Below, piece by piece: positions 1-3,000 of a DNA stretch of 9,779 bases. A program made the position numbers. Position 1 is the first letter of the stretch, and each line of letters opens with the position of its first letter. The DNA is taken from the IMG/VR virus record IMGVR_UViG_2740892231_000007, one strand, 5' to 3'. The DNA is from a virus. Taxonomy: Duplodnaviria > Heunggongvirae > Uroviricota > Caudoviricetes.

Positions 1-3000
1 ATGGCGAGAAAAACACCCCCATTAACCACGGTGCAGATCAAAGCAGCCAGACCAGCGGAAAAGGAATACACCCTACAGGACGGCGGAGGGCTTTTTCTCC
101 TGGTCAAACCGTCCGGATCAAAACTCTGGCGATTTTCCTACTACCGGCCATCGGACAAAAAAAGAATATTGCTGAGTTTTGGATCGCTTGATGATGTTTC
201 CCTGGCTGATGCCAGAAAACGCCGTAGCGAGTACAGAGCGTTAATCAGTGCCGGAACTGACCCGCAGGGCCATGAGAAGAAAAAACGAGAGGCAGAGGCC
301 CGAAGACAAGGGAACACGTTCGAAAATGTGGCGGCGGCATGGTACCAGGTGAAAATCAGCCAGAATCTGGCCCCCAACACGATTAAAGACATCTGGCGAT
401 CGCTGGATAAATATGTATTCCCGTTCATCGGCAACACCCCAATAGACACCCTGACCGCTCGCAGGTTCGTTGAGGTGCTTACCCCCATCAAGGAGCGCGG
501 CAACCTGGAAACACTCAAACGGGTTTTACAGCGCGTTAATGAGGTAATGGATTACGCCGCCAACAGTGGGCTGATTGATGCCAATCCGGCTATGAATGTG
601 CGTAAGGCGTTCCCCTCCCCTGTAAAAAAACATATGCCAACAATCCGCCCCGAACAGTTGCCGGAGCTTATGCAGGCTTTATCAGTATCGGCAACAGAAC
701 GGCAGACCAGATTACTGATTGAATGGCAGTTACTGACCGTAACCCGTCCCGCCGAAGCGTCATCAACGCGGTGGGATGAAATCGACCTGGACGCGCAACG
801 CTGGACGATACCCGCCGGACGCATGAAGATGCGCAGGGATCACGTTATCCCACTTTCCGGTCAGGCTATGGCGGTGCTGGAGGCCATGAAACCAATCAGC
901 CACCACCGCGATTATGTTTTCCCGAGTCTGAAAGACCCACGGCAGCCAATGAACAGCCAGACAGCAAACGCAGCATTACGACGCATGGGGTTCGCTGGCG
1001 TGCTGGTGTCTCATGGATTACGCGCCATATTCAGTACAGCAGCGAACGAGGAAGGATTCGAGCCGGACGTAATCGAGGCCGCACTTGCCCACGTCGACAC
1101 TAACGAAGTGAGACGGGCATACAACCGGAGCAACTACATAGAAAAACGCGTGGTGCTTATGCGCTGGTGGGGCGAATTTGTCGAGGCTGCGGCGACGGGC
1201 GTAACCCTCGCCAGTGGTAAAAGGGGTATCCGAGCCGTTTAGCTGTACAGAAAACCAGTAAAAACTACGAAAACCATGTAAAACCGTCGTATAATTGCAT
1301 CAAATTTAACGACAAGGCCGTGAAACATGAAACCGTTAAGATGCAAAAAAATTTCAGATGCAATTGCGACGGGCTGCAACTGGCCCTGATGGTTCAGCAT
1401 GAATTTTGGTCAACCTACGATCCGGAGGACAGAACGACGGCCCCATCAAAAAAACAGGTAGTAGATTTCCTGGTATCCCGTGGGGCATCCAGGAATATGG
1501 CTGAAAGTATCGACAGGGTAGTTCGTCCGGCAACCATGAAGACCGGAGGCAGGCCAAAAAAATGGCGGTAACAATCCTCAAAGCGGCAGAAATGCCGCTT
1601 TTTTTATAAATCCCTTTCAAATCACCAACATAAAAAACGATTCTAACCGTTTAAAAACGGTGGGAACTGTTTTTACCCATATCCGATGATTTACCGTATT
1701 TGTCACCGGAATACACCGGATTCACAAGGTAAATCACGATGGAAGCAATCAAAAAAGTCATCTTTCGCCAGGAAGTAAAAAAACTTATCCACATCAAGGC
1801 AGACAGCACGCTTCAAAGCATGATCAACGCCGGAGAATTTCCGCAGGGTTTTCGCGTTGGTTTACGCCGTCGCGGATGGTATGAGGAAGACGTAATCGCA
1901 TGGATGAAAGAACGTGAGCAGGAAGCACGCGGAACGGCTGCGTAATGGTGTGAGGCATAACACGATGAACATAACAAAAAGCGCCCCGTTGCCGGAACGC
2001 CCTTGTGAACAATTAACCTGCTGCGCCTTATGTGTATGTGATCCCAAACATAAGCACGGGAATGATAGCCGCTATCAGGCTGGTGGGCAATGTAATTACC
2101 CTTTGGGTTCTATGCCGCGTTGCTGTAATTCTTTGCGGATTATTCGCTTTATCCAGGCAGCAAGAGAATCATCGCCGTCATGTTGTTGTGCCTTTTCCAT
2201 CTTTTCCCGTAAGTCAGGATCTAAACGGAACTGGAACGGAGGATTACCACGCCTTTCGTTTTTGTGTATTGACACGTTAATTACACCTCATGTAATGTAT
2301 TTATGTGTATTGACACATTACACACAATCAACACAAAAAGCAAAGCCCGCTGGCGCTATGAACACCAACGGGCTTCTAACCAAACCATTAATTGAGGTAA
2401 CGATTATGGCTATAAAAGAGCATAGCTTACTCTTTATACACACACAAACGCCCCGGAAACAGAATAATCCGTTTCATAGTTCGGTTTTGTGCACTCATCC
2501 TGGCGGTCGGTTTTTGCCGGATTTAAGCCGCCGTGGGTATTTATCGACAAAATCTTCAAGGGCAAATTTTTCTGGTGGCACTAAGCGCGGCGCTGGTGGT
2601 GGTATTTTTGTTCTGGTTAGTTCTTCCTCAAGTCTGGCGCAGGCTTCTGACTGCCTTTGCCGGATGATTTCATCATCTTGCGTTTGCGTGTCTTGTATTG
2701 GTGATAGTGTGTTGTTGGTCATGATACTGCCCTGTAAAGCAATGCGCCGTAGTACCTCACACCACGGCGCTGATAGTGATTATTCTGATTCTTTGGCCTT
2801 GCGGCGCTGGCGGCGTTTGATCTCGCCTCGCATGGCTGTAACGATAAATTGCGCAGTGCTCTCGCCTGTTTCTTTTACTTGCTCCATAGCCTCAACAACT
2901 TCATGCGGGGCGCGAGCCTGTAATTTCTGTGATTTGTTATTGATATGGTCTCTTTCCATTTCTGCTTCCCTTTGTGATTACTGGAATCCAGTATACACGA

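Follow-up and report, generated by a model that had tools for sequence, protein, structure and literature searches.

What is encoded behind alpA in a Gram-negative phage satellite, and could it keep the island silent? Phage-inducible chromosomal islands (PICIs) of Gram-negative bacteria have no identified global repressor (PMC6092414) and their induction is reported to go through the activator AlpA (PMC6092414; 10.1101/2022.09.08.507074). In capsid-forming PICIs (cf-PICIs), the gene 3' of alpA has been called variable and of unknown function (10.1101/2025.02.11.637232). The question was followed in a stretch of 9,779 nucleotides of the IMG/VR virus record IMGVR_UViG_2740892231_000007 (the window). 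An earlier note on this DNA had pointed to a short open reading frame (ORF) on the minus strand, read it as a hidden Arc-family repressor gene, and taken two repeats around its start codon as an autoregulatory operator pair. The gene is called RHH59 here. Its product is likely a small ribbon-helix-helix (RHH) DNA-binding protein and the regulator of a switch cassette that is complete in itself (~2092-2376) and belongs to a capsid-forming phage-satellite island.

The minus-strand frame and its product

The GTG-initiated ORF of 59 amino acids was found exactly at 2275..2096 on the minus strand, as described before, and the two plus-strand ORFs that had been listed over it, i.e., 2032-2280 and 1914-3356, also exist. 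The comparison drew on orthologous DNA of four E. coli loci and of 80 genomes from other species. The coding test used 28 distinct main-group genes, the position of the operators was read from 42 distinct main-group upstream regions, and the surveys of promoters and of the antisense frame used 77 distinct loci or genes of all subfamilies.

In the minus frame, 71% of the differing codon pairs were synonymous. The frame of the 82-amino-acid plus-strand ORF (2032-2280) gave 3.9% and was open in 6 of the 28 orthologues. The share was 4-14% in other frames and 48% in the frame that shares its wobble positions with RHH59. Entropy in the minus frame was 1.18 bits at third codon positions, 0.43 at first, and 0.21 at second. 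The 82-amino-acid ORF is not a gene, because so few of its codon differences are synonymous and so few sequences keep it open. The earlier note had named synonymous sites as a possible refutation of its reading; they speak for it. RHH59 is a real and conserved gene under purifying selection, and the minus frame is the one that codes.

The GTG is the sole possible start. An in-frame TGA lies five codons (15 nt) upstream, so no earlier start exists, the Shine-Dalgarno (SD) sequence GAGGT stands at 9 nt, and the N-terminus MS(T/I)HKNERRGN is conserved. The Xenorhabdus orthologue has ATG in place of GTG at the same codon. Codon 3 (2267-2269) was Ile (ATA) in the window and Thr (ACA) in most orthologues. 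This change to ATA makes the proximal repeat identical to the distal one, hence the perfect 13-mer pair of the window.

A protein search recovered 112 homologues, nearly all of 59 amino acids, across Enterobacterales and neighbouring orders, i.e., in Escherichia, Shigella, Klebsiella, Serratia, Pantoea, Pectobacterium, Yersinia, Proteus, Xenorhabdus, Photorhabdus, Arsenophonus, Mannheimia, Frischella, and others. The family is compact, since among 1.84 billion cluster representatives a full hidden Markov model (HMM) sweep gave only 45 clusters at E <= 1e-3.

The word hidden holds in part. The gene was missing only from the ORF track used by the earlier note: the Prokaryotic Genome Annotation Pipeline (PGAP) calls the matching 180-nt gene in near-identical E. 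coli loci, as 'hypothetical' (WP_032308698.1 and WP_000103621.1) or as 'YlcI/YnfO family' (WP_000103622.1). RefSeq thus already lists near-identical copies, and the family is uncharacterised; no functional study of the YlcI/YnfO or RHH59 family was found in the searchable literature. In the island of E. coli O157:H7 (NZ_CP015846.1, L085), a family member is indeed unannotated. This 57-amino-acid gene (2830-3003, minus strand) has the operator type GGTAATTACC and is accompanied by a 62-amino-acid partner-like gene (2599-2787, minus strand), and neither is called. PGAP places a plus-strand pseudogene, 'Icd-like, incomplete', at 2387-2980 instead. An annotation problem is exposed by this locus.

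The fold was assessed by modelling and by profile searches. The AlphaFold2 model (86 sequences) had a predicted local distance difference test score (pLDDT) of 81, with helices 20-33 and 38-52 above 90. Residues 13-19, i.e., the alternating segment PFQFRLD before the helices, were modelled in the monomer as a short helix or coil. The strand of RHH proteins normally forms only in the dimer. Structural matches were found to the solved RHH proteins ParD, VapB12, TacA2, and HicB. Each match was weak, as is to be expected of 59 residues, but the list was uniform. The best profile match was PHROG 228, 'Arc-like repressor' (E 4e-6, in a database without curated cut-off). A VapB-antitoxin HMM matched weakly (E 0.011), and remote relatives of RHH59 gave weak NikA-like, HicB, and RHH_1 matches. 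No model reached its cut-off in the Pfam, NCBIfam, and PADLOC scans of RHH59, the protein of the window matched no Pfam model, and Pfam on 42 family members gave weak matches only, i.e., DUF3950 (7), HicB (4), RHH_1 (1), and RHH_7 (1). Searches of PDB sequences with the single protein and with a profile returned spurious matches only.

By fold similarity, RHH59 is an RHH protein that stands outside every curated family at cut-off. The Arc-like signature seen earlier stands as a likeness of fold, and the HMM search gave no membership in Pfam Arc or RHH_1. With the YlcI/YnfO model NF041551, which has a curated cut-off of 30 bits, RHH59 scored 17.6 bits (E 0.003) and the copies of L001-L004 scored 17.2-20 bits. 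Alignment of the RHH59 profile (40 sequences) with that of YlcI/YnfO (39 sequences) by hhalign gave E 0.021 and a probability of 2.3% over 38 columns in the RHH register. RHH59 would be at most a distant relative of that family. The protein would bind dyad-symmetric operator DNA as a dimer, through its strand; indirect support comes from the GTGT/ACAC dyads, the subfamily-specific motifs, and the swaps described below.

Paired repeats and opposed promoters

Two perfect copies of TGTGTATTGACAC lie on the plus strand at 2263-2275 and 2304-2316, as had been observed, and the motif was found nowhere else in the window. At 90% identity the repeat extends to 21 nt (2259-2279 and 2300-2320), with a spacing of 41 bp. 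The dyads have GTGT/ACAC arms, and each candidate site is also written as GTGTCAATACAC. When up to two mismatches were allowed, shuffled sequences gave 0.18 matches on average, and two matches were reached in 2 of 200 shuffles, in a test that is partly circular as the pattern was taken from the sequence itself.

The comparison between loci shows that the features exceed chance. The main-group upstream regions have one GTGTCAnnACAC site starting at the start codon and another 40-41 bp upstream, a spacing retained in most main-group loci. In 35 orthologous regions, conservation was 1.84 bits per position at the proximal and 1.67 at the distal site, against 1.35 for the whole upstream region, and the stretches between conserved blocks vary freely. 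Other subfamilies, which differ in the strand and the N-terminal arm, carry different repeated palindromes at the same two positions, including GGTAATTACC. The operator type is (AT)GGTnATTACC(AT) with PQYQMRL and PPFQMRL proteins, TTGTAATTACAA with DQYQIRL proteins, AGTGTCATACACT and GGTGTCnGACAC with KQIALRVE proteins, and GTATACAnTGTCA with the FSVQLRLD protein of L001.

Natural swaps were found in both directions. The window and L001 share the integrase gene and alpA (both at 96-98%) as well as everything to the right of 2336, but L001 carries another RHH allele with its own repeats; the segment exchanged between them is exactly 2092-2335. The window and L004 have unrelated integrase and alpA genes but the same RHH gene and repeats. 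The claim of an autoregulatory operator pair is supported by position, by conservation, by the replacement of the motif from subfamily to subfamily, and by swapping together with the gene, all of which suggest that the repeats behave as RHH59 operators.

Two promoters were predicted around these sites from comparative position, and from their positions they would face each other, with start points about 3 bp apart (~2305 on the plus and ~2308 on the minus strand). For the RHH59 promoter, TTGnnn-17/18-TAnnnT was found at a fixed distance, with the -35 hexamer starting -64 to -71 from the start codon, in ~65 of the 77 distinct loci and in all subfamilies; its hexamers are conserved at 1.58 and 1.86 bits. 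The -35 element of the opposing rightward promoter, TTGACA, lies over the start of the gene as the reverse complement of codons 1-3 (nTG TCA A). Of 77 loci, 74 have it, including loci with a different operator, and Ser2 of the family is nearly always TCA. The best -10 element at 16-18 bp had a mean of 4.3 of 6 matches, against 2.6-3.8 at control offsets, and L004 has TTGACA-16-TATAAT at the same place. A generic promoter scanner missed both promoters, the rightward one because it needs A at position 2 of the -10 element and that of RHH59 because of too few consensus matches.

The earlier note had read a TTGACA in each repeat as a possible -35 element of an opposing transcript. Both hexamers are present on the plus strand, at 2269-2274 and 2310-2315. 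The reading is supported for the start-codon copy only, which is the one that the relatives keep. The distal copy was rejected as a second -35 element, being ATGACA in most relatives and having no -10 element at 16-18 bp.

The terminator that had been placed between RHH59 and the other minus-strand genes was recognized as a hairpin at 2376-2342. The stem is kept in 72 loci by compensatory changes and by G-U pairs that form on the minus strand only, and the alifold energy was -18.6 kcal for the minus strand against -3.2 for the other. From this pattern, the hairpin is read as a minus-strand terminator that would insulate the cassette. A candidate structure in the 5' untranslated region of the rightward mRNA (2343-2375) was rejected, as the G-U pairs and the alifold energy favour the minus strand only.

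A conserved GGTTAGA box precedes the terminator, and 36-37 nt upstream of this box, at a fixed distance, stands a -10-like TAnnnT that is kept in most of ~75 loci. The start codon of the first early gene, on the opposite strand, is 24-36 nt from the GGTTAGA box, and 26-27 nt in most loci. From the fixed -10-like box and the strand-specific terminator, a cis-antisense RNA of ~80 nt over the ribosome-binding site of the early gene is predicted. The Rfam scan of the whole window at E <= 1 gave nothing in 1900-3400 and no C4/CI, sar, or IsrK-type RNA.

These elements suggest the following mechanism. RHH59 dimers would bind the two GTGTCAnnACAC sites, which are about four helical turns apart. The proximal site would cover the RHH59 start codon together with the rightward -35 element, and the distal site would lie between the two face-to-face -10 elements, over both predicted starts. 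With this geometry, occupancy would shut the rightward promoter and limit the synthesis of RHH59 itself, i.e., negative autoregulation. In most relatives, the rightward promoter would head the early operon, i.e., an Icd-like gene, then DUF4222, then a RepA helicase or primase. The RHH59-type protein would there hold the position of a satellite master repressor, and the subfamilies with different operators look like immunity types. In the window, the promoter would read a truncated Icd-like leader, run antisense over two further minus-strand genes, p75 and YlcI59, and enter the same early operon. We infer this chain, from DNA binding and the two promoters to repression and the biological role, from the comparison of sequences.

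Some points weigh against it. A plain correspondence of one strand residue to one operator base was rejected, since PPFQMRL and PPFQFRL share the facing residues P, Q, and R and yet their motifs differ; therefore, a contribution must come from residues of the N-terminal arm or from elsewhere in the protein. Gene and sites lie next to each other, so that linkage could also explain, or contribute to, their co-inheritance. The rightward -10 element of the window, TGTAAT, has no A at the key position 2, unless TAATGT with the 18-bp spacer is used. Finally, the relevance of the rightward promoter in the window is uncertain because 750 bp and two antisense genes separate it from the intact Icd-like gene.

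The cassette in its island and the alternatives

The window is a cf-PICI-type satellite island, with an integrase, alpA, a replication gene, and its own prohead protease and capsid, as assigned from the genes within the window; portal, terminase, and connectors lie outside it. Besides the features collected in the table, Icd-like, DUF4222, AAA_25 RepA helicase, and PerC genes and a CLP_protease + Phage_capsid_4 fusion (ClpP-capsid) were found. The spacer between perC and the capsid module (6887-7057) showed weak sub-threshold Rfam matches, among them a minus-strand hairpin of ctRNA_p42d-like type (6927-6968, E 0.27); this signal is probably just a terminator. The coordinates also bear out that RHH59 and alpA are convergent.

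Table. Features of the RHH59 locus, in positions of the window unless another locus is named
Feature	Position	Strand	Remarks
Integrase	in window		Phage_integrase + Arm-DNA-bind_3; Pfam-type domain matches
alpA	1739-1945	+	AlpA/HTH_17 match, weak
Long plus-strand ORF	1914..3356	+	480 amino acids; range also given as 1908-3356; first start GTG 1914; possible ATG 1965 with SD GAGG 1953-1956; ends as Icd-like protein
Terminator-like hairpin 3' of RHH59	1977..2004	-	12 pairs, then T run
Partner remnant ..CPPA*	2075..2089	-	15 nt; 67-amino-acid gene deleted directly after RHH59 stop, compared with intact L004 and L001
RHH59, 59-amino-acid RHH regulator gene (probable)	2096..2275	-	GTG start; product MSIHKNERRGNPPFQFRLDPDLREKMEKAQQHDGDDSLAAWIKRIIRKELQQRGIEPKG
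Proximal operator copy (candidate)	2263..2275		GTGTCAATACACA on minus strand; covers RHH59 start codon and -35 of opposing promoter; exact repeat
Opposing rightward promoter (predicted)	2269..2298	+	-35 TTGACA 2269-2274; -10 TGTAAT 2291-2296 (16-bp spacer) or TAATGT 2293-2298 (18-bp spacer)
SD of RHH59	2285..2289	-	GAGGT, 9 nt 5' of GTG; read from sequence
Distal operator copy (candidate)	2304..2316		41 bp upstream; spans both predicted transcription start points; exact repeat
RHH59 promoter (predicted)	2315..2343	-	-35 TTGCTT 2343-2338, 17-bp spacer, -10 TAATGT 2320-2315; consensus inference
Intrinsic terminator (predicted)	2333..2376	-	stem 2376-2342 and U tract; directly upstream of RHH59 promoter; right edge of exchangeable cassette
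cis-Antisense RNA, ~80 nt (predicted)	~2415..2335	-	promoter TTGTGT 2447-2442, TATGCT 2424-2419; ends at terminator; covers SD and ATG 2394-2408
SD, ATG, and first codons of Icd-like early gene	2394..2454	+	SD GAGG 2394-2397; ATG 2406; first codons MAIKEHSLLFIHTQT; frame continues to 3356
Inner, promoter-proximal cassette	2780..3060	-	YlcI/YnfO-family gene YlcI59 2780-2959; repeats TACTGGAATCCAGT at 2979-2992 and 3047-3060
Equivalent long plus-strand ORFs	L001 3183-4877; L002 2419-3774; L085 2387-3331	+	

In P4-like, PICI, and cf-PICI satellites, an RHH59-family cassette usually forms a switch with integrase/alpA on one side and the replication operon on the other. The family gene is the sole regulator in L003, L005, and many GTDB loci, where it is divergent from the operon of the Icd-like gene and RepA or primase, with the integrase gene at its opposite flank. 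The window carries two regulator cassettes in tandem, of which that of RHH59 is the outer. It consists of gene, operators, promoters, terminator, leader, SD, and first 15 Icd-like codons, stacked outside YlcI59 and p75; the same leader and start precede an intact Icd-like gene in L003 and L004. The inner gene, YlcI59, matches NF041551 (2.4e-20, 72.3 bits) and PHROG 949 (3e-27), and its palindrome TACTGGAATCCAGT is unrelated to the RHH59 motif. The layout of the YlcI59 cassette (2960-3160) is the same as that of RHH59, i.e., a GGTCAGA box, a hairpin, and TATAAT, with an extra TGGATTCCA at 3027-3035. Two tandem RHH59-family paralogues were also found in L029, L038, L054, L067, and L083 (Citrobacter, Kosakonia, and metagenome-assembled Enterobacterales). 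The stacking of cassettes thus recurs and is no peculiarity of the island in the window.

A partner gene of 67 amino acids lies 3' of the RHH gene in L001, L003, L004, L005, and L085. In the window it was deleted, and the BLAST boundaries of the deletion are at 2091/2092 and 2096/2101. The earlier note had hesitated between an independent second regulator and the DNA-binding half of a module, and both are right in part: the cassette is a complete and independent second one, and it is also the surviving half after loss of the partner.

The neighbouring p75 (2495-2722, minus strand, 75 amino acids) and the 67-amino-acid gene of L001 (3365-3568, minus strand) share an MTN... start and a (F/L)xLE(D/E)Fxxky motif. 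Homology of the two was not accepted, as BLASTP gave E 0.011, too weak to claim. YlcI59 and p75 are separated by a GC-rich hairpin, GCGCCGTGG...CTACGGCGC (2744-2770, minus strand). The same hairpin, at 80-88% identity, lies between the RHH gene and the 67-amino-acid partner in L003 (2435-2507), L004 (2790-2845), and L085 (2767-2836). The hairpin may serve as an intercistronic attenuator or mark a joint left by recombination.

With this context, other explanations can be weighed. It is unlikely, though worth keeping in mind, that the cassette of the window is a recombination relic, intact by recency and redundant, with the inner YlcI59 cassette doing the regulation. The mosaic boundaries coincide exactly with the cassette edges, the Icd-like gene behind RHH59 is cut short, the partner gene is gone, and the rightward -10 element is weak. 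A relic of this kind agrees poorly with the intact state of gene, both sites, SD, promoter, and both terminators, and with the identity of the two sites. The partner-less arrangement occurs in 53 complete E. coli genomes, and tandem cassettes recur in the five loci named above. The plus frame from ATG 2406 is also open for 316 codons into the Icd-like gene, in diverged alleles too.

RHH59 might instead act as the antitoxin in a type II toxin-antitoxin or accessory pair that has degraded, with repeats that serve autoregulation only and no control of the satellite; we give this little credence. The RHH fold, the autoregulatory-looking sites, the small downstream gene of the relatives, and the weak VapB match would suit an antitoxin. 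The partner, however, was found by tblastn only in the Escherichia/Shigella loci L001, L003, L004, and L005 and in no locus of other genera. Its matches were PHROG 21027 (function unknown) and a spurious Cas8g match only, and PHROG and PADLOC-type scans gave no toxin or defence family. In the window, no toxin gene was found adjacent to RHH59, only the short remnant downstream. Since only ~7 residues follow helix B, RHH59 has no toxin-binding tail. The fixed position of the cassette facing the early operon and the invariant -35 element on the opposite strand point to operon control.

That the repeats are bound by another factor, e.g., AlpA, the integrase at arm sites, or a host protein, or are promoter elements only, is very improbable. 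Each repeat does hold promoter-like hexamers, but in the natural swaps the repeats track the RHH allele and not that of alpA or the integrase gene, and every protein subfamily goes with a motif of its own, which has the dyad symmetry of RHH operators. The idea that the plus-strand ORFs (82 or 480 amino acids) are the real genes and the minus-strand ORF a chance antisense frame can be practically dismissed: the long ORF is strikingly long and open more often than synonymous shuffles predict, and PGAP marks part of its O157:H7 equivalent as a pseudogene, but the substitution pattern refutes the 82-amino-acid ORF, the 59-amino-acid length is conserved across genera, the long ORF matches a family only within its last 66 residues, and its openness is compatible with a gene on the minus strand, both signals being present together.

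The long plus-strand ORF is of interest beside RHH59 and not in its place. It is antisense to all three minus-strand genes and their spacers, in the frame that shares their wobble positions. Its part from ATG 1965 matched no Pfam or PADLOC model. Equivalent ORFs of 245-565 codons were found in L001, L002, L004, and L085, and either continue in frame into the Icd-like gene or end within its SD; in many genera, the stop of an alpA-type or Bro/Rha-type gene is often where the ORF starts. In 77 RHH59-family genes, wobble T before CAN, i.e., antisense TGA, was observed 21 times against 92.7 expected with amino acids matched, and in 192 large ORFs of the same loci, used as control, 1296 times against 1322. 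The antisense frame was open in 59 of 77 genes against 31.9 expected by synonymous shuffling (maximum 41 in 300 shuffles), a comparison in which sequence relatedness was not controlled. The feature is not universal, with a median of 165 codons and at least 250 in 28 of 79, and ordinary genes also hold long antisense runs (90th percentile 151). The long ORF seems to be held stop-free by selection. P4 offers the nearest precedent, and a translated leader like its own would be the leading idea. If real, the depletion of antisense stops would be a clean bacterial case of selection on both strands of one short gene.

A wider proposal goes beyond the window, and we put it forward tentatively, with more doubt than confidence. 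In Gram-negative PICI, cf-PICI, and P4-like satellites, RHH59-family cassettes would supply the protein repressor that is missing and would also determine the immunity type, as part of a switch of three layers. The first would be the repressor with its two operators on face-to-face promoters, and the second the cis-antisense RNA of ~80 nt, lying over the ribosome-binding site of the first early gene with its 3' end at the conserved terminator. As the third layer, the long plus-strand ORF, held free of stops by selection, would start where the alpA or Bro gene ends and pass in antisense through the repressor gene or genes. AlpA-driven read-through transcripts would stay translated along it, escape Rho and the antisense control, and override the repressors, and both frames of the sense/antisense pair would be under selection. 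The conserved RHH cassette at the position after alpA is in any case a concrete and testable candidate for what silences Gram-negative islands. Its candidate operators overlap the early promoter and move between islands as a unit, and the cassette could set the cross-immunity of satellites.

Comparison with known systems

Arc and Mnt of the immI region of phage P22 are RHH repressors of Pant and Pmnt, accompanied by the sar antisense RNA. They share with RHH59 the small size (~53-82 amino acids) and RHH fold, dyad operators (candidates in RHH59) over closely apposed opposing promoters, and autoregulation, which is predicted here. The PHROG profile that matches RHH59 is named after Arc, and sar, an antisense RNA over the ribosome-binding site of the first regulated gene, has a predicted counterpart at the RHH59 locus. 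In contrast to Arc and Mnt, RHH59 has no Pfam Arc or RHH_1 membership, has two candidate sites of 12-13 bp that lie 41 bp apart instead of one 21-bp operator, includes its own start codon in the proximal site, and belongs to a satellite island and not to a phage.

YlcI/YnfO proteins (NF041551; Pfam DUF3950) are prophage proteins of unknown function. They resemble RHH59 in size, predicted strand-helix-helix layout, and cassette architecture. YlcI59 of the window is a neighbouring paralogous unit, and the RHH59 copy that PGAP names YlcI/YnfO is 96% identical. The two families differ in that RHH59 scores below the cut-off of the model and aligns weakly profile to profile, and in their unrelated operator sequences. 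Type II RHH antitoxins (CopG/ParD/VapB/HicB C-terminal types) are alike in fold, by the structural matches, and in having operators over the promoter. They are unlike RHH59 in that the window has no toxin partner, the partner of the relatives has no toxin signature, and RHH59 has no C-terminal toxin-binding extension.

The immunity region of P4 has the CI RNA and a translated eta/kil leader that is coupled to an alpA homologue, and translation of the leader ORF is required for late transcripts to escape immunity-specific termination (PMC10111431). The RHH59 locus likewise occupies the zone after alpA and before the replication genes, and has a long ORF from the end of an alpA-type gene and a small RNA element, predicted here, in the leader. 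However, P4 immunity is RNA-based and has no protein repressor, whereas no C4/CI-type RNA was found in the window. The translated leader would here follow from stop-codon depletion alone, and the ORF is antisense to protein-coding genes of putative repressors.

Stl and Rpr, the repressors of Staphylococcus aureus pathogenicity islands and Gram-positive PICIs (PMC6092414), lie between the integrase gene and the replication module and face the early operon, as RHH59 does. The allelic diversity of RHH59 suggests specificity types, as in Stl/Rpr, but the RHH59 protein is unrelated and far smaller. By analogy, the closest system in working principle would be the P22 immI pair Arc/Mnt, and the closest in map position would be Stl/Rpr of Gram-positive PICIs.

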